Shown here: positions 8-60,769 of the stretch, piece after piece
Layout: each line of letters opens with the position of its first letter
Position numbering within the stretch: position 1 is the stretch's first letter
Virus record (IMG/VR): IMGVR_UViG_3300047994_000087
Coordinates: 82,742 to 146,741 of that record
Reading direction: 5' to 3' (one strand)
Source of the DNA: a virus
Length of the DNA stretch: 64,000 nt
The notes under the pieces: model-generated
Database searches by the model: none
What the model was told of the DNA's origin: nothing
Seen by the model: the letters and a program-made list of their open reading frames with translations, nothing else
Made by a program: the position numbers and the translations under genes

Positions 8-83
8 TGGAGGTCCAGGCACGACTTGCACATGCACCAGCGCTCTTATCGGGAGCGTGTTCCACTATTTGAACTACTGGACC
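8..83 (-). tRNA. tRNA-Ile(GAT)
   Basis: Cloverleaf GGTCCAG/CTGGACC, anticodon arm CGCTC-CCGATAA-GAGCG, encoded CCA; non-canonical T loop TGCAAGT. Confidence 0.9.
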
Positions 84-85
84 AA

Positions 86-160
86 TGGTCCGAGATGCAC
101 GAATTGAACATGCTTGATCCTGCTCCCAAAGCAGACGGCCAGCCAATGGCCCAATCCCGG
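86..160 (-). tRNA. tRNA-Pro(TGG)
   Basis: CCGGGAT acceptor, anticodon loop TTTGGGA, TTCAA T loop, CCA end. Confidence 0.9.
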
Positions 161-231
161 TCGTAGAGCTGTTAAGCTCTGGGGTTTGGACTAATTCGCG
201 GTCGGTTGAAAAATTTAGAGAAGGCATTGCC

Positions 232-329
232 TGAATTTCCTACATTGTTGATAGCTACGCTGCACAGCGATAATGACGACCAGCTAAACTGGCAATCGCT
301 TTGGAGGCTATAATGTAGGGACAAATTCA
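232..329. ncRNA. Long interrupted hairpin, candidate structured ncRNA
   Basis: Nested complementary pairs TGAATTT/AAATTCA, CCTACATT/AATGTAGG, ATAGC/GCTAT, AGCGAT/ATCGCT, CCAG/CTGG in an ORF-free gap next to tRNAs. Confidence 0.45.
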
Positions 330-648
330 CTGGAACTATTTCCTTTTAAACTAAACCTTTAGTGGCTGATCTTACGTGTAGCGCCTAAAGGCATCTGCAA
401 ACTAATCTATCACAGAAGCTGATCACTTGCAAATTTGTTTGCATTTTTGAAAACACAAACTAGATGCTCATACTTTTAATCACTTTCAAAATCAAATCCC
501 ATAAACCGATCTGCGTCATCATTACTACTAAACTCAAGGAATGTGCGTAAAGGCTCAGACCAATGAATGCAGTCGTATTCTATTTTGCCATCTAGGTTTC
601 TCCATTGCTCAGAGCAGGGGAGAATGACCTGTGTCTCTTGCGTTATTC

Positions 649-1416
649 TCACAACGTCTCCTCGTAGAGTTTAGTTGTCTCCAGTACGAGAGCAGGCAAT
701 ATCTTTACTGGATCACAGGCATACAAACCTGCAACGTTGACGCTGCCAGTTTCAAGAATCCGATAGCCATCTCCACCATCGCAAACATCCAGCACGTAAA
801 CTGGGGGCAATCCAGGATACATTGGGACCGACTCTGCAAATTCTTTTACGGTCTCTTCAACGCCAGCTTCTATGTGACGCTTTCCATCCCTTCTATAACA
901 ACAAACATCGAGGAGTCTTCCTTGGTGCATAAAGCATCTCCATTCATGCCGAATCTTATAGGCTGGAGCGGCAACAACCAATGTTGAAGGCTGCACCTGA
1001 TATCCATTGAATAGTCTCTCAAAATCTTCATAGCAATAGACGCCACCGTTGAAAAGCTTGTCGTTAGTGTCTGGACGTAGGAAAAGGTCTCTATCAACAA
1101 GCACCCCTTCTCTATCCCAACCCCATCTCTCCATTAAAGTCCCAGCTGGGAGCATGATATACTCCTGATTGAACAGAAATTTATGCCAATACCCTGCATA
1201 GTCTTGAAACCTCAGAGACTTCCAAGGGGTCAAATGGAACACATGGTTTTGAACCTGCTTAGTTACGCCGATACTTGCGTGCAGCAGTCCGTAATTCTCA
1301 TAGCGAGCAGCTTCTGTAGTCGGAAGAGTGTTTACCTCAACTTCCAGCCCAAGCTTTTCCGCCGCCTCTTTGACCAGAAGGTCTTCTGGAAGGAAATGTT
1401 CAAGTAACCATTTCAT
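649..1416 (-). CDS. ATP-grasp domain protein (R2K/DUF4343-like)
   Basis: LFLRPD..K.F.G, EWRCF, YVLDVC, ILETGSVNVAGLYAC motifs. Confidence 0.75.
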   Translation of the reverse strand: MKWLLEHFLPEDLLVKEAAEKLGLEVEVNTLPTTEAARYENYGLLHASIGVTKQVQNHVFHLTPWKSLRFQDYAGYWHKFLFNQEYIMLPAGTLMERWGWDREGVLVDRDLFLRPDTNDKLFNGGVYCYEDFERLFNGYQVQPSTLVVAAPAYKIRHEWRCFMHQGRLLDVCCYRRDGKRHIEAGVEETVKEFAESVPMYPGLPPVYVLDVCDGGDGYRILETGSVNVAGLYACDPVKILPALVLETTKLYEETL

Positions 1417-2153
1417 TTCTTCATTCCTTCCTCCAGCGTCACATAGCCATGCTTGATCGCGATTAGTCCTGTGGACATAAGCGGAAGGAAAGCAGACCTT
1501 ATCTCAAACTCCATCAGCTCAGGATGAGCATCGTGCATTCTCCGCACCAACGTGTCCATCTTGAACACTCCAAAAGGAGTGAGCATTTCCAATATTTCTT
1601 GTTGAAGGCTCATCTCATTTTCTCCAACACTTTCTATCTCCAGGGTCATTGAAATCAGCAGCCATAGGCTCTTTATCCCACAAGTCTACAAGCTCTTTTA
1701 CTACAGGGAGGGCTTCCGCTTCGTAATCAACCATGGCTTCGATACTCATCTTGATCGCCCTCCGCAGCTTCCTGCTGGTCTTGGCCTGCACCCACTTATT
1801 GGAAAACTTCTTTCCACACACGCCAATGTGTTTTTCATTGTAGTTTTTATGAGAGCGACTCACTGCTCGCACAGCCTCCAATCAATCTCATCTTCAAATT
1901 TCAGGGCTACTTTGTAAGCGACACCCCCATACAGACAGCTACAATCATTAGACTCTGAGTCATTATCATATTGATCATCAGTGCTACCGCCATTCTCGTA
2001 GAAGAATTGCCTGCGATTACAATCACACGAAGCGCTGCCTTCTTCCCACCAAAATAGGGTGGTGCCCTTTGTCACGCCTGGATAATCCATGTTGTGATCA
2101 TACTCAACCTGAGCACCGTCAGCAGTTCTTGTAATTCTTACTTGGTATTTCAT
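1413..2153 (-). other. Three small hypothetical CDS (1413-1649, 1615-1881, 1860-2153)
   Basis: Overlapping, co-oriented ORFs; the last has a WWEEG..SCDCNR Cys motif. Confidence 0.65.
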
Positions 2154-2213
2154 AAAACCGCTCCAGCAGTCAACATCTTTAGACTACTGGAGTTTTCATA
2201 CGCATCTTGTAAA

Positions 2214-2288
2214 TGGTTCCACTAGACTGGATCGAACAGTCATCAGACCCTTATGAGAGGTCGGCCTTAACCATTAGGCGATAGTGGG
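2214..2288 (-). tRNA. tRNA-Met/Ile2(CAT)
   Basis: Anticodon arm GACCT-CTCATAA-GGGTC, TTCGA T loop, CCA; C1.A72 mismatch. Confidence 0.85.
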
Positions 2289-2295
2289 ATAAAAA

Positions 2296-2370
2296 CTGCG
2301 AGAGAGGGCCACGATCCCCCAACCTTCTCCTTAACAGGGAGTTGCTGCCACCTACTTGAGCTATCTCGCA
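2296..2370 (-). tRNA. tRNA-Asn(GTT)
   Basis: TGCGAGA/TCTCGCA acceptor, loop CTGTTAA; no encoded CCA. Confidence 0.8.
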
Positions 2371-2377
2371 ATATAAA

Positions 2378-2448
2378 TGCTCCATGTTGGTACTGCCCCA
2401 ACAAATCTTCCTTGTAAGAGAAGCGTGATACTTTTTCACCAACAGAGC
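2378..2448 (-). tRNA. tRNA-Val(TAC)
   Basis: CTTCT-CTTACAA-GGAAG anticodon arm; T loop GGCAGTA; no CCA. Confidence 0.75.
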
Positions 2449-2451
2449 GAA

Positions 2452-2523
2452 TCGGCTGCATACGAGTTGCACGTATACCAAACTTCTTAAGAGGAAGGTG
2501 TCCTGCTATTAGACGAGCAACCG
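2452..2523 (-). tRNA. tRNA-Lys(CTT)
   Basis: CGGTTGC/GCAGCCG acceptor, CTTC-CTCTTAA-GAAG anticodon arm; no CCA. Confidence 0.75.
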
Positions 2524-2526
2524 AAA

Positions 2527-2601
2527 TGGCCCCCACACTTGAAGTCGAATCAAGACCCTTTCCTTCGTAGGGAAAGATGCTATCCATTACACTATGCGGG
2601 T
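2527..2601 (-). tRNA. tRNA-Arg(ACG)
   Basis: TTTCC-CTACGAA-GGAAA anticodon arm, TTCGA T loop, CCA. Confidence 0.85.
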
Positions 2602-2602
2602 A

Positions 2603-2678
2603 TGGCCTTCCTGGAGAGATTTGCACTCCCGTAAGCCCGCTTAGAAGGCGGGTGCCCAATCTACTAGACCACAGGAAC
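2603..2678 (-). tRNA. tRNA-Arg(TCT)
   Basis: CCCGC-CTTCTAA-GCGGG anticodon arm, CCA. Confidence 0.85.
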
Positions 2679-2679
2679 A

Positions 2680-2754
2680 TGGTGGGTTGTGATGGTTCTG
2701 CCCCATCATCAAACTGCTTAAAAGGCAGGTGTCTTGCTGTTAGACCAACAACCC
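2680..2754 (-). tRNA. tRNA-Lys(TTT)
   Basis: GGGTTGT/ACAACCC acceptor, loop CTTTTAA, T loop GGCAGAA, CCA. Confidence 0.85.
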
Positions 2755-2775
2755 AAATAGTTTTTAAATTTTGAA

Positions 2776-2849
2776 TGGTAGGGTGCACGGGGATCGAACC
2801 CGTTTTACCTAGTTGAAAGCTAGGGTTCCGACCAATAGAAGAGCACCCC
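2776..2849 (-). tRNA. tRNA-Glu(TTC)
   Basis: CCTAG-CTTTCAA-CTAGG anticodon arm, TTCGA T loop, CCA. Confidence 0.9.
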
Positions 2850-2850
2850 A

Positions 2851-2925
2851 TGGAGCCGATGGACTGGTACTGCCCCGTCGCTTCCACATTACAAGTGTGG
2901 TTTGCTACTTTTACAACACAACGGC
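2851..2925 (-). tRNA. tRNA-Thr(TGT)
   Basis: CCACA-CTTGTAA-TGTGG anticodon arm, T loop GGCAGTA, CCA. Confidence 0.85.
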
Positions 2926-2931
2926 AAAAAA

Positions 2932-3006
2932 TGGTGGAATGTCCGAGCTTTGCTCTCGGCTCTACTGATTGCAAGTCAGTGGTTTTACTGAATAAACTAA
3001 CACCCC
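2932..3006 (-). tRNA. tRNA-Ala(TGC)
   Basis: G3.U70 pair, ACTGA-CTTGCAA-TCAGT anticodon arm, CCA. Confidence 0.85.
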
Positions 3007-3209
3007 AAGTATCAGGCGCTAGCTCGTGCGTTCTTAGTAGAGGCGCTCTTTGTAGTTCGCTCTCGTGTCGTGTTTGTAGTTGTTGTAGAAATAGCATGAG
3101 TAGTAGGTTCCAGAATAGGTGTGCAAACGTTAGCGACAGGCATTACCCGTCTGCTATTTCGTTTGACATTTATCCTTACAGTACTCACGTGTTTAGGTCC
3201 TTGAATAAA

Positions 3210-3284
3210 TGGAGCGGTCTGTGGATCTTGAAACCACATTCTCTGCTTGGAAGGCAGTAGTCTTAGCCTTTGGACGAAGACCGC
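3210..3284 (-). tRNA. tRNA-Gly(TCC)
   Basis: GCGGTCT/AGACCGC acceptor, U73, loop CTTCCAA, CCA. Confidence 0.9.
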
Positions 3285-3367
3285 ATGGCGCCGATTTCTC
3301 ACGTCCCGGCACAGGCGTTAAGCTGGTTTGTTTATCTCCGTCCTAGGACCAGCGAGGACGCTTTACT

Positions 3368-3441
3368 TGGGAACAGGGGTGAGATTTGCACTCACGTACT
3401 GGGGGTATGAACCCCATAAGCGACTAATGCTTGACCCTGCG
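3368..3441 (-). tRNA. tRNA-fMet-like (CAT)
   Basis: CGCAGGG start with a 1:72 mismatch, consecutive G-C pairs in anticodon stem GGGG-TTCATAC-CCCC, CCA. Confidence 0.8.
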
Positions 3442-3552
3442 ATATAAAGACATTGGTGCGCTTTGTGTAGTGGCGTATGTCTTCTTGTTCTTACTAGTTA
3501 AGCACATTCTTTAACCGGTAGCAAATTTTTTCAAAATTACTCGTCTACTCTC

Positions 3553-3590
3553 AAAACAAAAACGCTCCTGAAGGACTACTTCAAGAGCGT
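3553..3590 (-). terminator. Rho-independent terminator
   Basis: ACGCTCTTGAAG-TAGTC-CTTCAGGAGCGT followed by TTTTGTTTT, downstream of CDS 3627-4118. Confidence 0.8.
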
Positions 3591-3626
3591 AAATGTGATT
3601 ACTAGATGTACCTAGATTTAATCCGA

Positions 3627-4118
3627 TTACTCAACTTTCCAATCAGACACGCCATCACTCAGGAAGGTTTTTGTAGTGGTGGTTGCAATAGTGGTTGAAC
3701 CAGCCGCACCCCCAGCTACCGTATCTGTTCCATTGGCAACTGCCATAGTTACAGTACTAGACCCTGAATTGTGGATATGTATTTCCGCACCCACACCAGC
3801 AGTTGCAGCGGATGGCAAAGTAGCCGTACTAGCTGAACTTGAGGTTTCATAGAACGATTGACCAGCTTTAGCTGTAAATGATCCAGCCTCACTTGTTACA
3901 GCTGTAAAACGACCCTGAAAACCAAGATTACCTTGAACAAGAGTCAACGGAGCTGCTACTTGTACAGGGAAGATACTTCCATTAGGAGCAGTAGTTCCAA
4001 TAAGAACTTGAACTCCGCCATCATACTGAGCCTTAACGATTCCAGCGCCAACCAAAGACAACACTGCTGCGGCCACGACCGCGATTACATTCTTTCTTCC
4101 TAGCTTCATTCTATTCAC
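3627..4118 (-). CDS. Signal-peptide-bearing protein with a tail-fibre-type C-terminal beta domain
   Basis: Basic-hydrophobic N-terminus ending VKA-Q; C-terminal TATLPSAA...SDGVSDW resembles the ends of 51556-53088 and 53586-54089. Confidence 0.65.
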   Translation of the reverse strand: MNRMKLGRKNVIAVVAAAVLSLVGAGIVKAQYDGGVQVLIGTTAPNGSIFPVQVAAPLTLVQGNLGFQGRFTAVTSEAGSFTAKAGQSFYETSSSASTATLPSAATAGVGAEIHIHNSGSSTVTMAVANGTDTVAGGAAGSTTIATTTTKTFLSDGVSDWKVE

Positions 4119-4153
4119 CCCAAATAACTAACTACGCTCTGAACTGTTCAATA

Positions 4154-4235
4154 TGGTGGAAATGCAGGGTTCCGCCCCCTGGTCCAACGAGTTCCACAGT
4201 GGGTTTTACTCATTGTCGACTGCTATTACATCCCC
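4154..4235 (-). ncRNA. Miniature tmRNA-like gene (tRNA-like domain only)
   Basis: GGGGATG..TCGAC 5' end, GGAC-T arm-CATTTCC-ACCA 3' end, G3.U70, no D stem; P2 helix AATGAG/CTCGTT encloses only ~17 nt. Confidence 0.75.
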
Positions 4236-4239
4236 ATTG

Positions 4240-4600
4240 TGGCTCTTGCTTACGGGAGCCAATCGTTATGCTGCCTTAGAGTTTCAGTCATAGGAGTTGC
4301 AGCCTCCCAGCTTCAATGATTGCAGGTGTGTTAGCTACTCACTCTGACGGCTTCCTGCCAGCCGCTTATCCTGGCTTGAGTTACCCCAAAGGGATTCAGA
4401 GGCGGTGATAAGACTTACCAGACCCTGGAGATCTTTCATTCATAGGACTGCATCCAGGGTATCTGATGTATTTGTATCACCCATGTTTGATGCTTCTTTA
4501 TTTTGCTCTGATCAACATCAAGACTGTCTATGTTTTCTAAAAGCACACACCATCTTCTGTGATGTGCATATAGTTAATTATGCGTGCGACAATTAATAGA
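4240..4600 (-). ncRNA. Candidate large structured ncRNA
   Basis: No credible ORF over ~360 nt; many helices (GGTGATA/TATCACC, ACCCTGGA/TCCAGGGT, CTCTGA/TCAGAG, GCGGCT/AGCCGT, TGGCTC/GAGCCA). Confidence 0.55.
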
Positions 4601-4602
4601 CC

Positions 4603-4815
4603 CTACTTTTGCCCTGCTTTGCTCCGAATCAAACTATCCAGAGTACTTGCCGCATGGTCTATGTACACAGCAACCTTATCCAACCCATCAGCAGCATCCT
4701 TGTCGTCCTGGTAGGTAAACGAGTACCCTTTTGCAATATCCCTTGCAGCCTCCAATCGTCTTTGCAGGGTGAGCAAATATTCGTAGCGCTCCAATAAATC
4801 TTTTGCCCTACTCAT
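4603..4815 (-). CDS. Leader-tagged protein, small helical (MSRAKDLLE)
   Basis: ORF with the shared N-terminal motif. Confidence 0.75.
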   Translation of the reverse strand: MSRAKDLLERYEYLLTLQRRLEAARDIAKGYSFTYQDDKDAADGLDKVAVYIDHAASTLDSLIRSKAGQK

Positions 4816-5177
4816 ATCCCTAGCCTGTGTCTAATTATGCTCTCGTAGTCATATCCATCACTGCCTACTTGCGCTTTGACTTCCCATATCCCTGCATTGT
4901 CTTTGTTGATAAAGAAGCAAGCCCAATAGTTGGGATCTAATCCCTCACATTCCATGAATCCGTCGTGAGTCATTTTGTAAGATTCCCAAATGTACATAGT
5001 GCTCTTGTCAGTACAAGGACGTTCCAGTAAACAGCGGAGTCTGTCATACCCATGATCAAGTCGCACTTCTGTAAGAGCGCGATCTATAGAACGAGCATTG
5101 ACCGACACACGAATCTTCTCCGCTGTCCCCACGTCCAACATCTCTACTGATTCTAGGATGTGTTTTACTCTACTCAT
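4812..5177 (-). CDS. Leader-tagged protein (MSRVKHILES); paralog of the C-terminal half of 5170-5763
   Basis: Shared ESVE..RVSVN.R..E.RL..MY.W.SY..TH blocks. Confidence 0.75.
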   Translation of the reverse strand: MSRVKHILESVEMLDVGTAEKIRVSVNARSIDRALTEVRLDHGYDRLRCLLERPCTDKSTMYIWESYKMTHDGFMECEGLDPNYWACFFINKDNAGIWEVKAQVGSDGYDYESIIRHRLGI

Positions 5178-5763
5178 CATTCAGGAACTCCTGCACTTCT
5201 TCTGGCTGATCATATGGCCGACCATCCACTACATAACTAGACATCTTCCAACCACTCTTAGCAGACGGCTCTCTGTCTAACTCTCCACGCTTACTAAAGG
5301 CATATGACACTCCCAGAGCATTGGCTGCAAATTCATGGGTACGGTCATAGGAAGCCCAGAAGTACATATCTCCGTCTTCTGACACCAGGAAGCGAACGTG
5401 GTTGCCGTTCAAACCGCGCTCGCCCAATCGCAACTCCTTCTCCATGCGTTTGACGTTACGAGGATTAACAGACACTCTTGTTCCGTCTGCTATCTCAACA
5501 CTCTCCATCGCCCTAGCCATCATGTAGGTCTTCTGCTCCAGGTCCTTTTGAGACATGGGCAAGGTCGGCTTTCCGGCCCACTTGTTTATCGCTGCACGGA
5601 TCTCAGGTGTGACGTTGTCGGTAGTGGCCCAAACAAACTGTCCATCACTGAATGCCATAACCACATGCCAGCAGTACAGGAGTTTGCAGTTGCCGTACAC
5701 CACTTCCGAAGTATGTGAGTCCAGGTCACGGACCAGCTCTAGAAGTCTTCCAGCTCTACTCAT
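5170..5763 (-). CDS. Leader-tagged two-module protein (MSRAGRLLE; internal MARAMES)
   Basis: ORF with the N-terminal motif and an internal leader-like copy. Confidence 0.75.
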   Translation of the reverse strand: MSRAGRLLELVRDLDSHTSEVVYGNCKLLYCWHVVMAFSDGQFVWATTDNVTPEIRAAINKWAGKPTLPMSQKDLEQKTYMMARAMESVEIADGTRVSVNPRNVKRMEKELRLGERGLNGNHVRFLVSEDGDMYFWASYDRTHEFAANALGVSYAFSKRGELDREPSAKSGWKMSSYVVDGRPYDQPEEVQEFLNDE

Positions 5764-6455
5764 TTATACTAAGCGCCTTCCCTACATGATAGTCAATCTC
5801 TTCCTGACTTATCATAATCAGGCCTACCTTTTGAGGACCAAATAGGTGGTGTACATTGAAAGTACACGTCTGCGCCACAATCTCAGTGAACAATACTGGC
5901 CACAATTCTTCTGGAGTATTCATGCACTGCCCTTGGTAGGCAAGCACCTCACCCCTCAGGCTAAAAGGAGCGTGTCCTGTTGTGTGTCCCAGCAGGTCGT
6001 GTGCAATGCGAAAAGCAACGTTTGTATCAACTGACCAGACAGGGTGGATACTGTGCAGACTGGTCACTTTAAACACACCCTGTGCAATGTCCGCAAACAT
6101 CTCGTCTGAGGACTTGTAGGGGTCGACATCGTCGTACCGGATAATCTGATAGTCCTTTGAAAGCATGGCGGCCTGCTCGACACAACAGCGTCCTAACTTC
6201 TCCCAACTTCTCCCAAAGCTCAGAGGCGGAAGAGTCGTATGTTGGCATAGCATCATAAGCAGCACAGATGTCAGCCGCTTCCTTACTATAGAAATCTATG
6301 CCTGTAGGCGATATGGCATACTCGCGCACAATGGCACCGCCACGAGGAGCATTGCCAGTAAGGAATATGGCGTTGTTTGCCTTTACTATCTCCTCAGGAG
6401 ACTTACACTGGATGCGCTCTTCTTTCATAGCTAATAATCTCTTTGCTCTACTCAT
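5756..6455 (-). pseudogene. Leader-tagged putative metalloprotease-like protein (MSRAKRLLA), frameshifted by a 10-bp duplication
   Basis: ORFs 6069-6455 and 5756-6265 join into 229 aa if one TGGGAGAAGT copy (6196-6215) is removed; FRIAHDLLGH...GE motif. Confidence 0.75.
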
Positions 6456-6904
6456 ATCTGAACCACCTTAGCCTTCCCCGATCCGGTCAGCACTAGGGCC
6501 AGATTGAGTCTAGTATTCCCGGACATTATTGTGCGTCGTCCGTTCTTCTCAAGCACGATGGGCAGCTTCATGGGAGAGCCATTATGAATGCCGTCTATGA
6601 TGTCCTGGAAGGTTTTATCGTTCCGATACTGTGGCCAGCTTCTGTAGCCCTTGACCATGTCTAAAAGATCCTCGACCGGCATCATTGTGGCACCGCTTAT
6701 GCCTGACGTGTTTGACAGAGAAATTGTCTGTCCTGCTCTGTAGGCGTCCTCAAAGTCTTCGAAGGTCGGCCAGATGTCTCCAGCCCAATGCCTTACGTGG
6801 TACTGGTACTCGACGTTATATTCCTGTTGCAAGTCCGCAGTGGAATTATCCACCCAGTTTATGGATTCGTTGATTGAAGATAGTATGTCTCGTGCTCTGG
6901 TCAT
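6452..6904 (-). CDS. Leader-tagged ParB/Srx-like domain protein (MTRARDILS)
   Basis: LPIVLEKNGRRTIMSGNTRL matches the ParB N-terminal P(I/V)V...I..G(H/N).R pattern; start moved to the motif ATG, which overlaps the upstream stop. Confidence 0.7.
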   Translation of the reverse strand: MTRARDILSSINESINWVDNSTADLQQEYNVEYQYHVRHWAGDIWPTFEDFEDAYRAGQTISLSNTSGISGATMMPVEDLLDMVKGYRSWPQYRNDKTFQDIIDGIHNGSPMKLPIVLEKNGRRTIMSGNTRLNLALVLTGSGKAKVVQI

Positions 6905-7515
6905 AGCATCTTCCTGTAGTGATCTGTCGATAGACTGTCGGAGAACTCCCACTCAATCTCATCGTCCTTCATTGCACGTGAAGTCTCCAGGTTAGAGAAA
7001 GCAGCGCCTTCCATAGAGTTGTAGACATAAATGGGAATTCCCTTTTGCTTTGCCAACTCCCAGTCTTTCTTCATACGGTTCATGTTTACCGAACCACGTT
7101 GCGACTTACCCAACCACATATGAATCGCCTTTATGTAACTACAAGCATCAGGGATAATCCTGTCTTTGCTGAAGACGCGATCTTCCATCTCAACTGTGTC
7201 GCCGGAACCACGTGAGTAGTCCTTGGCCTGGTGGAAGGCTTGGAAATCCACAGCGTGCCCTGAGTATCTATTGTTGAACTTGTCCCCATCAAGCACCAGT
7301 AGGACTTCCCTGTAGTTGTAGTCTCTGTAGGCATTACGCACACTACGAGACACGCAGAATGAATACGGCTTGTCTGGTGGATTCATAGCCCTGTCCACGT
7401 CGTAACCGCCAAGCATAAACTCGTTGTTCTCCAGAATACCCCCTAGAGCTGAGGCGCTAGTGCCGTGGAACACAACAGATGATATGCGTTCTAGGATGTG
7501 TCTTGCGCGGCTCAA
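6901..7515 (-). CDS. Leader-tagged ADP-ribosyltransferase-like protein (MSRARHILE)
   Basis: VFHGTS..L..IL, FCVSRS, EMEDR: H-x-T / S-x-S / E-x-E pattern. Confidence 0.6.
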   Translation of the reverse strand: MSRARHILERISSVVFHGTSASALGGILENNEFMLGGYDVDRAMNPPDKPYSFCVSRSVRNAYRDYNYREVLLVLDGDKFNNRYSGHAVDFQAFHQAKDYSRGSGDTVEMEDRVFSKDRIIPDACSYIKAIHMWLGKSQRGSVNMNRMKKDWELAKQKGIPIYVYNSMEGAAFSNLETSRAMKDDEIEWEFSDSLSTDHYRKML

Positions 7516-7850
7516 AATCCCATCTCCCTGCCATTCTGATATTTGTCTTGTTGCACTGGCCCCAGCACATCAAACTGCGTGGCAGTTGGATCAAATATCT
7601 GTCCACTCACTTCACACCAAGAGTGGTAGTGTCCGTCGTAATAACCTTCCATTCTCTCCACAGGGAAGCCCGCTCCATATAGCATCTTCGCCCAGGTAGC
7701 GCTTTTAGCGGTGCAGTCTAAGTTCCACTCATCGGCAAAGATGTTGGTGAAACGATGTGACATGATCCAGGCCTTCACCTCTGGGTTAAACCCAGGTGAG
7801 AACCAGAATGGTGGCTCCGCGCTCTCTAATAATCGTCCGGCGCGGCTCAT
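7512..7850 (-). CDS. Leader-tagged transglutaminase/papain-like domain protein (MSRAGRLLES)
   Basis: DC...G.P.E..EG...HSWCEV...FDPTA.QF: Cys-His-acidic pattern. Confidence 0.6.
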   Translation of the reverse strand: MSRAGRLLESAEPPFWFSPGFNPEVKAWIMSHRFTNIFADEWNLDCTAKSATWAKMLYGAGFPVERMEGYYDGHYHSWCEVSGQIFDPTATQFDVLGPVQQDKYQNGREMGF

Positions 7851-8405
7851 CTATAAATCTCCATGGAAGTAGTCCATAAGCAGCTCTTCAGAAGCCGCAA
7901 AGCGCTTGTCCATATCTTTGAATTCGGCTTCATTGGTGTAGCCATAGAACGGTATGTTCAGATTATGACAAAGCACATAGATGTCATAGACCACTTCTCT
8001 TGCCTGGCTTCCATAGCCACTCAGTAAGGACACGTGTACTTCTCTAACGTAAGTACGTGCATTAGGTATTTCAGGCTTGTCGCTGAATATGCGATCTTCC
8101 ATCTCTGAACGTCTGTACTTATCAGTGCCAGCCATCCAGTCGACAGCGTGCCCAGTGTAGCGATCATTGAACTTGTTCCCATCTAGAACTAGCACAGCTG
8201 TGCAAGCTCCATCTTGGAAGAACCCATTAGTTTTACTACGGGCAGCGCTCATGCAGTATTCACGTGTTGTGTCAGGAAGGCCATCTACTCCAGTGTGCTT
8301 TAGATGAAACAAATTCTGCTGCAATATAGACAGCGCATTCTCTCGGCTTGTCGCATGGAAGAGAATGTCCGACACTCGTTCTAAGATGTGACGTGCTCTA
8401 CTCAT
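7851..8405 (-). CDS. Leader-tagged ADP-ribosyltransferase-like protein, paralog of 6901-7515
   Basis: LFHATS, LVLDG.KFN.RY.GHAVD and EMEDR.FS blocks shared with 6901-7515. Confidence 0.6.
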   Translation of the reverse strand: MSRARHILERVSDILFHATSRENALSILQQNLFHLKHTGVDGLPDTTREYCMSAARSKTNGFFQDGACTAVLVLDGNKFNDRYTGHAVDWMAGTDKYRRSEMEDRIFSDKPEIPNARTYVREVHVSLLSGYGSQAREVVYDIYVLCHNLNIPFYGYTNEAEFKDMDKRFAASEELLMDYFHGDL

Positions 8406-9145
8406 TAGTTGCGCTCCCTCTGGACAAGCACCTTACGGTACTGAGAGAAGTTATTCTCAACCCAGAAGACAACGTCCGCTAATCTGTCCTCTGTATGGAG
8501 CACTCTGTCAGTCCGCTTATCTTGGACTTCCCAGCCACTTCCATTCCACCAGATAGGGACAAAATCTGTAGCAGTCCCTGCTACGAATACAGTTTGATAT
8601 TCCTCGTCGCCATGGTGTCTGACAGTTACTCCAGAAGCACGGAACATCACAGCATCACGTCCATAATGATCTCCTTCTGCTGGACGTAAATTATCGTCAG
8701 CAAAAGCAAACACGTAAGCGCTCAAGGGGTCACGAATGAGCTTAGCACTGTTCTTGTAATAGGTGGTCAGACCTAGCCGGTCGAAGTCCTCTAGGCCGTA
8801 CTTGAATCCCTGAGCAATGATGTCGCTAACGTTGTTAGACTTGTGAACCATCCATGTGTTGTGTGTGATCTCATCGAAGTCCATGAACATGTAAGAAGGG
8901 TCATCCGGGCTGTCAAAGCGGTTGTTGTCAAACACCCACTTACCAAACTTGATACGTTCTTCTTTAGAGAGGTCATCAAATTCTTTGCCGTCCTCAATGC
9001 CCTTTTCCTGCGCGTAATTCTCATACTCATAGGAGTGTGAGTAGGAGATGTCGTCAGCCTTCTCATCATCCGTCATGGTGAGATAGTTCTTGAACCAAAT
9101 CAACGGATTACTTATGTACTCTAAGATTTTCCCAGCCCTGGTCAT
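8405..9145 (-). CDS. Leader-tagged protein with an ART-like domain (MTRAGKILE)
   Basis: WMVHKS...DIIAQGF, YVFAF, HYG, DEEYQ. Confidence 0.55.
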   Translation of the reverse strand: MTRAGKILEYISNPLIWFKNYLTMTDDEKADDISYSHSYEYENYAQEKGIEDGKEFDDLSKEERIKFGKWVFDNNRFDSPDDPSYMFMDFDEITHNTWMVHKSNNVSDIIAQGFKYGLEDFDRLGLTTYYKNSAKLIRDPLSAYVFAFADDNLRPAEGDHYGRDAVMFRASGVTVRHHGDEEYQTVFVAGTATDFVPIWWNGSGWEVQDKRTDRVLHTEDRLADVVFWVENNFSQYRKVLVQRERN

Positions 9146-10179
9146 CTATGTGTCTCCACTCGCAAAATGGCAGACACAGGCACCCTCACATCTTCACCTT
9201 CTCGACGACTGATCCACTCACGCTCGTCGTCTTTACACATAAATGAATCTATCTCAGCTTCCTCATAGTCCTTCTCACAGGCATCGTCATAATCATCGTC
9301 GTCATCAAAATCTTCAGGATCTAGTGAGCATTCATACTGCTCTCGCCACCCTTCTCCAGCTATGTACGACATCTGATCAGGATGCTGCCTTGCCCACGAT
9401 CTGGTATATTGAACTTGCTCAAGTTGCCCCGCAAGAGCGTTCTTATCCACAGCAATCACACAGTCTCTGGCTGATATGTCATAGACCCATGGCTTCTCCG
9501 AGAAAGAGACAAAACCCTGTTGCCCTGGTCTGAACACACCGGTGCGTTTGATCTCGTCAGCCACGCTGAATGATGTTGTATGGTACAACTCCTGCGATTC
9601 TAATATCTTAGCCGCTCGTCCGAACGAAGACACTTGTAAGAATGCCAACACTGTGCTTGCTCTACTCTCAAACTGATAGCCATCAACTCCACGAGAATAG
9701 TCATAAGCTTTAACTTGTCCATCACGGCTTATGCCTACTTGCCCTGCATCGAGTTTGTTTATCCATTGAGGGTCAAGATCTGCCTGGTCATAAACACCAG
9801 CTTGTAAGCCCGTCTTGAAGCGCATCAGTTGAGTGAGCTTCTCCATCATCAAGACTTTCACTCCATGAATTGCAACCATCTCGCACTTCGCATAGTGGCT
9901 CATTGGATGCCGTTTGAATATGTCATATTCTTTCTGATTGTCAGACTCCCCCTCCAGATCAAGAGGCATCTTCACCACGTTCTCTCCAGCATCAAAGACA
10001 ACTCTGTATGCCCCAATACCAATTGGTTCCCCATATTTAGTAGTCAGGTCTTCCAACAGCGTTATATAAAGATGGAGTTGGTTCGGTGCGTATGCGAACG
10101 AAGCAGCTACATTTGCAGCAGCCTTCTGATAAATTTGATTATGGTCACGTTCATTCAAGAACTCAGAGGCTCTACTCAC
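9142..10179 (-). CDS. Leader-tagged fusion: kinase-like domain plus ART-like domain (MSRASEFLNE)
   Basis: IGIGAYRVVF..VVK..N..E (Gly loop, Lys, Glu) and YDY; internal RAAKILES followed by LYHTTS..I...G, FVSFSE, DEREW. Confidence 0.65.
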   Translation of the reverse strand: MSRASEFLNERDHNQIYQKAAANVAASFAYAPNQLHLYITLLEDLTTKYGEPIGIGAYRVVFDAGENVVKMPLDLEGESDNQKEYDIFKRHPMSHYAKCEMVAIHGVKVLMMEKLTQLMRFKTGLQAGVYDQADLDPQWINKLDAGQVGISRDGQVKAYDYSRGVDGYQFESRASTVLAFLQVSSFGRAAKILESQELYHTTSFSVADEIKRTGVFRPGQQGFVSFSEKPWVYDISARDCVIAVDKNALAGQLEQVQYTRSWARQHPDQMSYIAGEGWREQYECSLDPEDFDDDDDYDDACEKDYEEAEIDSFMCKDDEREWISRREGEDVRVPVSAILRVETHR

Positions 10180-35038: not shown

Positions 35039-36190
35039 CTAATGCCAGTCTGTGAGTTCGTCCGCACCCTTTTGGGTCAAGTAACTGTCTGAAATCGCTT
35101 TCAATACTTTACGACCATTCCAAGACTGCTTCTCATAAACATCCTTCAGAACTACCCCTTCCCGTATTTTCTGGCCGCCCACAGTAGAATCTCCTTCCCT
35201 CATTGCACTAATCAACGCAGGTGAATAAGTTCCTAGATACAAGAAAGGCACCATAGGCAACTCTCTCTCCTCACAGAAGGCCTTGAACTGCTCATAAGGT
35301 AAATACTTGTAGTCCACCTTCACGTCATAGACAAACAAGCTGTGCTCTCCAGGTCCATGCCCGTAGTTGTACTTCGCCTGAACTCCATCACCTACAATCT
35401 CCCCATATATTGCTTCATTGGGCTTGAGTTTGCTAGGGATATCGTACTGCTTGGATATTTTTCCATATATGTCAAAGCCGTAGTACAGCTCACCTCTCTT
35501 AGGCTTACGTTGCAGCTGCACATTACGTGACCCATAGCAGAACTGATAGGCGGGCAGTAGTCCAAAGAACTTTCTGATCTTGTCCCATAACGTCGACGCA
35601 ACTGAGGGGAACAAACCAGCCCTATATGAGGTTCCATGCAACTTTTCGGAAATATAGACTGTGTCTTCATCCGTAAAGATCTGTGGGTAGTTTTTCCAGT
35701 TGCTAATGTCGTTATACTTCTGGAAGGCCGGATTGTTTCCAGGCTTCCGTTGTCCGCTTCCGCCGACCTGCATATGCTGAGGCAGCGAACTAACGGGCGG
35801 CTCGTACTTGGTGATCTGAAGAAGCTCAGTAACATCATCCCCCAACTTAGCCTTACTCAGCGCTGGGTACATCTCAAGCAACTCAGGACTGAAATCGACA
35901 ATCATGCCTTGGCTGATGGCACCACGAAGTTTGATTGACTTCACACGGCTCTTAGAGAGAGTGACCTTACTTCCTATTGGGAAGAGAAAGTCCTCCAGTT
36001 GCTTAGGGAGCACTGCATCGATGGGAATGTAGATAGTCTTATCGCCCACCTTGTAACGGGGCTGCCCATCCTCTGTCCTTGAGGTAACCACCCGCCAACC
36101 TCTCACTGCAACGCAGTCAAGTCTGTCCGCATTGGGATGTCTCTCAATACTTTCTATTGCTACCACTTCAACTCTGAAATCGCTTCCCAT
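35039..36190 (-). CDS. RNA ligase, DRB0094/Rnl5-like (N-terminal OB fold plus nucleotidyltransferase)
   Basis: HPNADRLD, LRGAISQG, EKLHGTS, YGEIVG, FVYDV, REGVV, LKAIS..YL. Confidence 0.9.
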   Translation of the reverse strand: MGSDFRVEVVAIESIERHPNADRLDCVAVRGWRVVTSRTEDGQPRYKVGDKTIYIPIDAVLPKQLEDFLFPIGSKVTLSKSRVKSIKLRGAISQGMIVDFSPELLEMYPALSKAKLGDDVTELLQITKYEPPVSSLPQHMQVGGSGQRKPGNNPAFQKYNDISNWKNYPQIFTDEDTVYISEKLHGTSYRAGLFPSVASTLWDKIRKFFGLLPAYQFCYGSRNVQLQRKPKRGELYYGFDIYGKISKQYDIPSKLKPNEAIYGEIVGDGVQAKYNYGHGPGEHSLFVYDVKVDYKYLPYEQFKAFCEERELPMVPFLYLGTYSPALISAMREGDSTVGGQKIREGVVLKDVYEKQSWNGRKVLKAISDSYLTQKGADELTDWH

Positions 36191-49350: not shown

Positions 49351-49421
49351 CACCCCGCGCGTGGATCGAACACGCATAAACTGGTTTAGAATCAGCCGCG
49401 CTACCACTGCGCCAATCTGCG
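49351..49421 (-). tRNA. Degenerate tRNA with CTA (amber) anticodon
   Basis: Good D arm (GCGC-AGTGGTA-GCGC) and T arm (GCGTG-TTCGATC-CACGC), loop TTCTAAA; acceptor stem unpaired, no CCA. Confidence 0.6.
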
Positions 49422-49426
49422 ATATT

Positions 49427-49490
49427 TGGTGGACCAGGCTGGATTCTAACCAGCGATCTATTTCAGCTTTGAGCACTAAGCTACCGGTCC
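49427..49490 (-). ncRNA. tRNA-like RNA lacking the anticodon arm
   Basis: GGACCGG/CTGGTCC-ACCA acceptor, D arm GCTT/AAGC, T arm GCTGG/CCAGC, only ~11 nt between D and T arms. Confidence 0.7.
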
Positions 49491-59509: not shown

Positions 59510-60769
59510 ATGGTACTAGAAGAAATCGCCAACACTGTAGACGAAAAAATTCCCACAACCGTAAAAGGTCTGTGTAGCTTCGTGCGGAGAGCTGCTAAGA
59601 AAACCTCTGATGTTAAGATCTGGTCCTCTTTGTCGGATGAAGCACAGGACTATCTAACAGCTTGCCGTAAGGCTATGCAAGAGCAACAAGAGATCCCACG
59701 TCCTGACGATTTTGTTGACGAGAGCAGTAATGTGAGTGGTACCGGTGAAGAAGACGATGAAGCTCCTCCAGCCAAGTTCAAGGTCAGCTGTAATGGCAAA
59801 AACTACTCTATCGATAATGTGCTCATGCAAATGGAGCAAGGCCGTCTCAAACTGCCTTCATTCCAGAGAAAGTTTGTATGGCCTAAGCCTACACAACAGA
59901 ACTTCATCCGTGCTGTCCTGGACGATATCCCTATCATTGGGTTGACGTTCACACTGGATCTTAAGTACGGGAACGACCGCTATATTATGGATGGATTTCA
60001 GAGGCTGTCCACGCTTAAGGCGTTCAAGGATGGGGAATTCACTTTACCTAAGGGACATGAGTTTGCGGGAGTGAAGTTTGACGACCTTCCTAAAGAAGTG
60101 AGGACTCATTTTCTCTGGAAGGACATTATGGCTAACGAGGTGATCGCAGACCGTGACGTATGGCCATATATATTCCGGCAGATTAACAGAGGGGGTAATC
60201 CCCTTAAAGAGGACGAGATACGTCGAGCTACTCCATGGGGTAAGGATCATCAACAACATCCAGTCATTGAGTTGTTTGATGAGCTAGCAGAAAACCATTC
60301 TCAGTGGCTCGAAGTGTTTGGCAAAAACTCACGCTATAAAGGGTTCGGCGCGTTGGTACGTGGAGTTGCCATGCATACAAGCTACAAGCTCTTCACTAAG
60401 AAGATGTCACCATTCCTGGACACGTTTTGTAGTTCCCTTGATGTGCTTCAACTGGATGCAAAAAACCTACAAGAGCGCCTTTCTTTGATCTTCTCCGCCC
60501 TTGCTGAAGAGATTGGTAAGAGCAGCTTCCGAAATGGTAAGACAGTTAATGCTGGTCTATGCGATTGCATGTTACACGCTGGGTTATTACTCACTGCTGA
60601 TGCGTCCAATTTCCCAGAGTCAGAGGAGTTAGGCACTAAACTCAAGCAAGTAAAGGCTAAGCTTCTGGCTGACCCTGCTGTAGTCAATGCCATAACTAAT
60701 GACACCTCTGGTAGGGCGTCTGTAATGACTCGCATGGAAGCTGTGGAGAAAATTATAGAAGGGCTGTAG
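59510..60769 (+). CDS. DUF262 (GmrS/ParB-like NTPase) domain protein
   Basis: LPSFQRKFVW, IMDGFQRLSTL, IFRQINRGGNPL. Confidence 0.85.
   Translation: MVLEEIANTVDEKIPTTVKGLCSFVRRAAKKTSDVKIWSSLSDEAQDYLTACRKAMQEQQEIPRPDDFVDESSNVSGTGEEDDEAPPAKFKVSCNGKNYSIDNVLMQMEQGRLKLPSFQRKFVWPKPTQQNFIRAVLDDIPIIGLTFTLDLKYGNDRYIMDGFQRLSTLKAFKDGEFTLPKGHEFAGVKFDDLPKEVRTHFLWKDIMANEVIADRDVWPYIFRQINRGGNPLKEDEIRRATPWGKDHQQHPVIELFDELAENHSQWLEVFGKNSRYKGFGALVRGVAMHTSYKLFTKKMSPFLDTFCSSLDVLQLDAKNLQERLSLIFSALAEEIGKSSFRNGKTVNAGLCDCMLHAGLLLTADASNFPESEELGTKLKQVKAKLLADPAVVNAITNDTSGRASVMTRMEAVEKIIEGL

Follow-up and report, generated by a model that had tools for sequence, protein, structure and literature searches.

A tmRNA gene reduced to the tRNA-like domain in a 147-kb phage genome, and its relatives in viral contigs

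Among described tmRNAs, the one closest to the element studied here is that of mycobacteriophage DS6A. It is listed in the tmRNA Website as ‘TLD only’ under tmID 11587, in the ‘Standard, no CDS’ form (PMC4131195, PMC11915505), and its sequence has been characterized as ‘little more than the TLD’ (PMC4131195). A DS6A-like molecule is reported to inhibit tmRNA strongly in E. coli whether it is chargeable or not, perhaps by titrating SmpB (PMC4131195, citing Mao et al. 2009; PMC11915505). Two functional options for the DS6A RNA are found in the literature, an SmpB/EF-Tu decoy and tag-less rescue (PMC4131195, PMC11915505). Only nine ‘standard, no CDS’ sequences are present in the 2025 tmRNA database (PMC11915505). 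The DS6A RNA maps to JN698994.1 28478-28560 (L262), in the gap between gp33 and gp34, and is unannotated in the GenBank record.

Other known systems share parts of this design. Bacterial one-piece tmRNA (RF00023) has the full tRNA-like domain and the P2 helix, as do the short RNAs described below (mini-tmRNAs or minis), whereas the pseudoknots, resume codon, tag frame and stop of the bacterial molecule are missing from the minis. Alphaproteobacterial two-piece tmRNA (RF01849), which includes representatives from marine phages (PMC9004378), resembles our element in its T-loop (GGCGGNA or GGCAGUA) and AAUAG-type D-analog; our element, however, is in one piece, is not permuted and has no coding piece. 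The CDS-less tmRNAs of mitochondria and plastids (jakobids, oomycetes, Mallomonadaceae) are also tag-less tRNA-like domains and are thought to act with SmpB (PMC3590771, PMC11915505). These organellar forms are mostly permuted two-piece molecules and the sole tmRNA of their compartment, whereas our element is brought by a virus into a cell with its own full tmRNA. An earlier note on this DNA was right that tag-less tmRNAs are known from some mitochondria, and omitted the phage example that had also been published; the two functions it proposed for the element, decoy and tag-less rescue, coincide with those discussed for DS6A. Our literature search found no paper describing the breadth of the mini-tmRNA family.

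The element is located in an IMG/VR virus genome, 146,741 bp long and rated complete by CheckV; the stretch under study (the window) comprises the last 64 kb of this record. Like the DS6A RNA, the element is phage-borne, about 82 nt long and in the standard non-permuted order. The two have in common an acceptor stem with G3:U70, a D-analog ending in UCGAC, a short P2, an A-rich linker followed by a mini-hairpin, and a T-arm. They differ in that DS6A combines a canonical UUCGAUU T-loop with D-analog GG, has GCAC in place of GGAC and ends in ACUA (CCA not encoded), whereas the window element combines GGCGGAA with AG, has GGAC and encodes its CCA. The window element also has, unlike DS6A, tandem G.U at acceptor pairs 3-4. 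The carriers are unrelated: DS6A is an actinophage siphovirus, whereas the window belongs to a 147-kb phage without a close isolate. Judged by its sequence, the window element is a divergent addition to a TLD-only type already published once (DS6A); it adds a divergent member and not a new principle.

Architecture and detection of the window element

The 82-nt mini-tmRNA gene is encoded at 4235..4154 on the minus strand, with the RNA 5' end at 4235; RNA position p equals 4236 minus the window coordinate. The earlier note had placed the element at 4154-4235 without giving the strand; the sequence it reported is exact, its segments sum to 82 nt, and the tmRNA hallmarks it claimed (UCGAC, GGAC, no D stem, G3.U70, CCA) are all present. 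The P2 helix that it described also exists, with a different size, 7 bp (AAUGAGU/ACUCGUU) with a 15-nt tip instead of 6 bp with 17 nt. The parts of the element are as follows.

4154..4235 (-): whole mini-tmRNA gene, 82 nt (sequence; R1 model 67.3 bits, E 1.8e-13, full length)
4229..4235 (-): acceptor stem 5' strand GGGGAUG, RNA 1-7 (7/7 pairs with CAUUUCC; RNAfold)
4215..4228 (-): stem-less D-analog loop, UAAUAGCAG followed by UCGAC, RNA 8-21 (sequence; covariation table)
4208..4214 (-): P2 helix 5' strand AAUGAGU, RNA 22-28 (fold; family P2 covariation)
4193..4207 (-): apical module, RNA 29-43, AAAAC linker, 3-bp mini-hairpin CCA-CUG-UGG, then A
4186..4192 (-): P2 helix 3' strand ACUCGUU, RNA 44-50 (fold; family P2 covariation)
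4182..4185 (-): GGAC connector, RNA 51-54, the tmRNA hallmark 5' of the T-arm (sequence)
4165..4181 (-): T-arm CAGGG-GGCGGAA-CCCUG, RNA 55-71, 5 bp with a 7-nt loop
4158..4164 (-): acceptor stem 3' strand CAUUUCC, RNA 72-78 (7/7 pairing)
4154..4157 (-): discriminator A73 and genome-encoded CCA, RNA 79-82 (sequence)

In the acceptor stem, G3.U70 is followed by G4.U69, giving two consecutive G.U pairs. This tandem wobble occurs in three of the 98 aligned family sequences. The T-loop GGCGGAA is non-canonical and of a type known from alphaproteobacterial permuted tmRNAs, and the D-analog contains the dinucleotide AG, which accompanies the G55-C56 type of T-loop. UCGAC and GGAC are separated by only 29 nt; the mRNA-like domain (resume codon, tag frame, stop, pseudoknots) is missing, and no tag-like frame is seen in these 29 nt or in the flanks. 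We also considered a hidden mRNA-like domain in the upstream stretch 4236-4602 and rejected it: there is no tag-like peptide and no Rfam match, and the fold z-score is -1.1. RNAfold recovers the structure of the element. However, its energy is not significantly better than that of shuffled sequences (z = -0.7), and therefore the support for the element is comparative.

Standard annotation passes over the locus. ARAGORN reported ten tRNAs at 8-3284 and made no call at the mini-tmRNA, Rfam at curated thresholds gave no match there, and the general tmRNA model RF00023 had no match anywhere in the 146,741-bp genome. Nor does the element look like an ordinary tRNA-Ala: the D stem and anticodon arm are absent, and neither ARAGORN nor Rfam tRNA models up to E 10 recognized it, so that the better fit to an ordinary tRNA model, which the earlier note had named as the outcome that would speak against it, was not seen. 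With permissive Rfam settings the best match was RF01849 (alpha_tmRNA; 25.2 bits, E 5e-5, 4184..4105), for which the gathering score is 50. It covers the T-arm, the 3' acceptor strand and CCA and then extends onto GGGGUGAAUAG, 46 nt downstream. RF04321 reached 18.2 bits against a gathering score of 47.

The picture is different with a covariance model (R1) built from 17 other viral mini-tmRNAs, the window sequence being left out. Searched against both strands of the 64-kb window, R1 matches the element over model positions 1-81 of 81 with the score given above, well outside what chance would give; the matches ranked after it, ordinary tRNAs, do not exceed 20 bits. In the entire 146,741-bp genome the model finds a single copy. 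On DS6A it scores 59.4 bits, end to end. RF00023 accepts minis with canonical T-loops above its gathering score, with the entire middle deleted. It rejects DS6A, the tested members with a GGC-type T-loop (L010, L004, L149) and the UGC-loop member L083; another UGC-loop member, L030, passes. Minis with the T-loop type of the window element go undetected by ARAGORN as well as by Rfam. Only part of the non-canonical set, the window element included, is therefore invisible to current annotation.

Mini-tmRNAs in viral contigs

Pattern scans of IMG/VR revealed at least 178 viral loci with at least 140 distinct sequences of 67-97 nt. The first degenerate pattern, in which only UCGAC, GGAC, the GGCGGNA loop and ACCA were fixed, retrieved the same short architecture from further viral contigs, where the stems show compensatory changes. 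A broader pattern produced at least 120 matches; all listed loci were minis of 67-97 nt with perfect pairing, and the imperfect matches were only register-shifted copies at the same loci. The third pattern left the acceptor stem entirely free, with ACCA still fixed, and yielded at least 99 distinct matches. Among the matches listed, 77 were minis; of the other 22 of the 99, most came from the 3' ends of tRNAs or of full-length tmRNAs. Since the size is conserved in at least 140 distinct sequences, the short form is not a one-off deletion. The family is real, common and almost unannotated.

The free acceptor stem is what makes the third scan informative about charging. All 77 minis among the matches listed have G3:U70, while pairs 5, 6 and 7 vary between GC, AU, UA and CG, which argues that charging, and not just SmpB binding, is under selection. 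For this question the acceptor-stem-free samples comprise the 77-mini scan and five sequences of the first pattern; another part of the family was collected with fixed GGGG/YTYC/ACCA, and conservation at these positions is circular there. GGAC was likewise fixed in the scan patterns, and its invariance in the family alignment is not independent evidence.

Covariation was assessed in a model alignment of 98 sequences, in which acceptor pairs 1-4, UCGAC, GGAC and ACCA were fixed and the informative parts are pairs 5-7, the T stem and P2. In this alignment 98.3% of the cells are paired, compared with 69% in shuffles, and there are 463 double-sided changes, compared with 110 in shuffles (0 of 500 shuffles reach the observed number). 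When the partner column is slid, pairing falls to 52-62%.

The D-analog and the T-loop also change together. The purine dinucleotide of the D-analog tracks T-loop positions 55-56 with few exceptions, in the combinations listed below; these are counts over related sequences and not independent events.

D-analog GG with T-loop xUC or xCC: 86
D-analog AG with T-loop xGC: 34
D-analog GA with T-loop UUU: 9 (counted by inspection; the scripted RG rule left them unclassified)

The window element obeys this rule, as AG occurs with GGCGGAA. The changes correspond to G19:C56 -> A19:U56 and G18.U55 -> A18.G55, the exchanges that an elbow like that of tRNA should show. The architecture, the membership of the family, its covariation and the conserved charging determinant are all direct observations. 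The family membership, the covariation and the likeness to DS6A bear out what the earlier note had proposed, namely a tRNA-like domain with alanine identity elements and without an mRNA domain.

A tRNA occurs within 500 nt in only 28 of the 178 listed mini loci, and hence the adjacency to a tRNA cluster seen in the window is not a family rule. In bacterial assemblies, three minis of the GGC T-loop type were detected (in Tissierellia, Clostridiaceae and Marinilabiliaceae MAG contigs). Another 32 matches, in Alphaproteobacteria and related MAG contigs, have the appearance of acceptor pieces from the permuted tmRNA genes of the hosts themselves. Inferring the host of the phage from its alpha-type T-loop was considered and rejected, because true minis of this type are found in Clostridia, Tissierellia and Bacteroidia MAG contigs. 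Some family loci have other structured RNAs close by. Locus L010 contains a ROOL RNA (3627-4233 (-), 319.8 bits) 1.2 kb from the mini, L129 a Pistol ribozyme (6093-6154 (-), 51.9 bits) about 100 nt upstream of it, and L125 a RAGATH-24 RNA (871-1073 (+)) near it.

Possible functions of the mini-tmRNA

We lean, with moderate confidence, towards a functional phage gene for a TLD-only tmRNA of the DS6A kind, which would be charged by the host and compete with host tmRNA. This charged competitor is favoured because G3:U70 is found in 77 of 77 minis beside freely covarying pairs and because the elbow is retained. The RNA would be cut, as a tRNA is, from a longer minus-strand transcript, its CCA end being genome-encoded, and would fold into a tRNA-like elbow without an anticodon arm. 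Host alanyl-tRNA synthetase would charge it through G3:U70 and A73, host SmpB and EF-Tu would bind it, and the resulting Ala-TLD/SmpB/EF-Tu complex would compete with host tmRNA for SmpB and stalled ribosomes. Since the mini-tmRNA has neither a resume codon nor a tag frame, nascent chains would be left without the SsrA degron, and the handling of ribosomes in infection would be split from proteolytic tagging. Release of the chains would then fall to the host, for example to ArfB or Pth, or come about by drop-off. Processing, charging, SmpB binding, ribosome entry and benefit to the phage are inferred. No SmpB, full tmRNA, ArfB/RF-1-type GGQ protein or Pth is encoded in the phage genome, and any activity of the mini-tmRNA would therefore use host partners.

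Several points weigh against the charged competitor. The window element has the tandem G3.U70/G4.U69 wobble and a non-canonical T-loop, and the 365 nt upstream of it yielded no sigma-70-like promoter. A message-less ribosome carrying peptidyl-Ala-TLD would have reached another dead end, from which only a host factor could free it. Furthermore, the inhibition that a DS6A-like RNA exerts in E. coli is reportedly independent of chargeability (PMC4131195, PMC11915505), which favours a pure sponge and makes it the sole reading with experimental support. Such an RNA would soak up host SmpB, perhaps also AlaRS and EF-Tu, off the ribosome and shut trans-translation down, its charging and entry into ribosomes being irrelevant. 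A conserved and covarying SmpB-binding elbow in a phage without its own SmpB agrees with this. However, a sponge does not need G3:U70, which all 77 listed minis with a free acceptor stem have while the neighbouring pairs vary, and a total block of rescue would trap ribosomes that the phage needs; we regard the sponge, the main rival, as fairly unlikely. It might be argued instead that the element is an inert remnant, either of a tmRNA or tRNA-Ala gene that has decayed or of host ssrA, taken up by integration or excision (an attP-type fragment), since tmRNA genes are common integration sites and their fragments occur in prophages (PMC9004378, PMC4131195). This is highly improbable, since at least 140 distinct sequences from unrelated phages agree in size and architecture and show compensatory changes, and since there is no anticodon arm and no fitting tRNA model. 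Moreover, the acceptor stem has kept its two strands, which are joined by a short conserved helix, an arrangement that, to our knowledge, integration fragments never have. The least probable reading, to which we give almost no credence, is that the element is the acceptor piece of a permuted two-piece tmRNA of the alphaproteobacterial type, with the coding piece starting from GGGGUGAAUAG. The RF01849 and RF04321 matches and the alpha-type T-loop GGCGGAA point in this direction, but both scores are far under the gathering scores. With the 3' strand, GGGGUGA on the downstream side forms four of seven pairs, whereas the upstream GGGGAUG forms all seven; no UCGAC follows the downstream copy, there is no tag-like frame on either side, and GGGGUGA is the ribosome-binding region and start of a 160-aa ORF. 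We therefore rejected the permuted arrangement and consider the Rfam extension onto this segment spurious.

The tip of P2 calls for one more alternative, a tag of zero length, in which UAA, UAG or UGA at the tip would serve as the ‘resume’ codon and a release factor would end the chain after one alanine. In the 102 long-loop members, P2 leads into a linker rich in A, generally with a U before it, and then mostly into a CC...GG hairpin of 2-4 bp. In 68 of these 102 members a stop triplet starts no more than 2 nt from where the 5' strand of P2 ends, compared with 40 +/- 4 in local shuffles, an enrichment possibly overstated by the relatedness of the sequences; CAA- or GAA-type triplets occupy that spot in 20-23 of them. 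UAA is present at the P2 tip of the window element, where the last U of P2 and the apical A's form the family motif UAAA, and natural tmRNAs with 2-aa tags are known (PMC11915505). On the other hand, the triplet is absent from a third of the members, and the short-loop forms (67-73 nt) are too small to have space for it. The U is usually in the last base pair of P2, and together with the A-rich linker and mini-hairpin that follow it resembles a structural motif. In published structures of the TLD with SmpB, P2 points away from the decoding centre in the manner of a long variable arm. Going by these structures, the tip of a 7-bp P2 would not reach the decoding centre, and we judge a zero-length tag very improbable. 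Because a third of the members are without the stop triplet and the 67-73-nt forms are too short for it, we read UAAA as a putative structural motif and not as a decoded stop.

If the mini-tmRNA is charged, it might go beyond competition and act as an active device for tag-less rescue, a form of phage counter-defence; we consider this unlikely. Stalled ribosomes would accumulate as host nucleases cut mRNAs and tRNAs in infection. Ala-TLD/SmpB would take the nascent chain, add one alanine (or several, if the reaction were repeated) and hand the chain to host ArfB or Pth, with the result that ribosomes would be recycled and phage proteins would not be degraded. Were this true, the tRNA cluster (at least 12 genes) and an RNA ligase of the phage would belong to the same translation-maintenance kit. 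Another possibility is that the mini-tmRNA is a decoy or trigger of defence proteins with SmpB-like domains, e.g. CoCoNuT types II and III-A (PMC11090510).

The mini-tmRNA probably separates ribosome rescue from protein tagging. The collection of at least 140 distinct phage versions, to be set against the nine database sequences mentioned above (PMC11915505), suggests that many unrelated phages tamper with host ribosome rescue and degradation tagging through one tiny RNA. Such RNAs would show, by natural example, the minimum that SmpB, AlaRS and EF-Tu require for recognition. The conservation of G3:U70 and the covariation of the elbow frame the question as one between a charged RNA on the ribosome and an SmpB sponge.

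Genomic neighbourhood and further genes of the phage

All genes around the mini-tmRNA are on the minus strand. The neighbouring features are as follows.

4236-4602 (-): ORF-free upstream stretch, 365 nt; a GGCUC...GAGCC hairpin ends 5 nt before G1
3627..4109 (-): ORF of the 160-aa protein, downstream of the RNA and separate from it, N-terminus resembling a signal peptide (PHROG tail-fibre match, weak, E 7e-5)
3562..3590 (-): strong intrinsic terminator, a 12-bp stem then a U-run, which ends the unit of mini-tmRNA and 160-aa ORF
2378-2448 and 2683-2754 (-): tRNAs from Rfam without an ARAGORN call, 41.8 and 47.7 bits

Beyond the terminator lies the cluster of at least 12 tRNA genes at 8-3284 (the ten of ARAGORN and the two by Rfam). 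Searches for relatives of the phage covered 50,697 phage records by blastn, with region 3300-5300 and the element as queries, and returned nothing usable. Three neighbouring proteins compared with IMG/VR gave no relative, and neither did an exact 32-mer. In tblastn of all 425 genome ORFs against the mini-bearing loci, only distant matches without synteny were obtained.

The 5' half of the RNA contains one arm of a 13/15 direct repeat (ATGTAATAGCAGTCG at 4217-4231 (-)), and the other arm (ATGTAATCGCGGTCG at 4077-4091 (-)) is in the next ORF. We rejected the downstream copy as a vestige of a duplicated 5' half, as the shuffle p is ~0.008 and 5 of 1066 window tiles reach its score; the repeat is possibly due to chance. 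In the opposite direction, at 4603-10179 (-), successive and otherwise dissimilar ORFs have a common start, M-S/T-R-A-x-x-I/L-L-E.

Two other unusual tRNA-like genes are present in the window. A 64-nt gene at 49427-49490 (-) has an acceptor stem with A3:U70, a D-arm, a T-arm and an encoded ACCA, and 5 nt in place of the 17-nt anticodon arm (Rfam tRNA 44.7 bits, no ARAGORN call). Its predicted structure makes it another tRNA mimic lacking an anticodon, the second in this phage and distinct in kind from the mini-tmRNA. Six nt after it, at 49355-49421 (-), there is a tRNA (Rfam 38.1 bits) with the loop UUCUAAA and anticodon CUA (amber), whose 3' acceptor strand is short of four bases. Candidate readings are a suppressor tRNA, a pseudogene, or one half of an arrangement split between it and the adjacent gene.

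An RNA ligase is encoded at 35039-36190 (-) (Pfam PF09414, E 4.5e-19; PHROG 968, E 1e-64). Its presence together with the tRNA cluster and the mini-tmRNA suggests a kit for translation repair and maintenance. Finally, the phage ORF at 59510-60769 (+) contains a GmrSD_N restriction-endonuclease N-terminal domain (PF03235, E 8.6e-13) and sits between SNF2-type and DnaB-type helicase genes.
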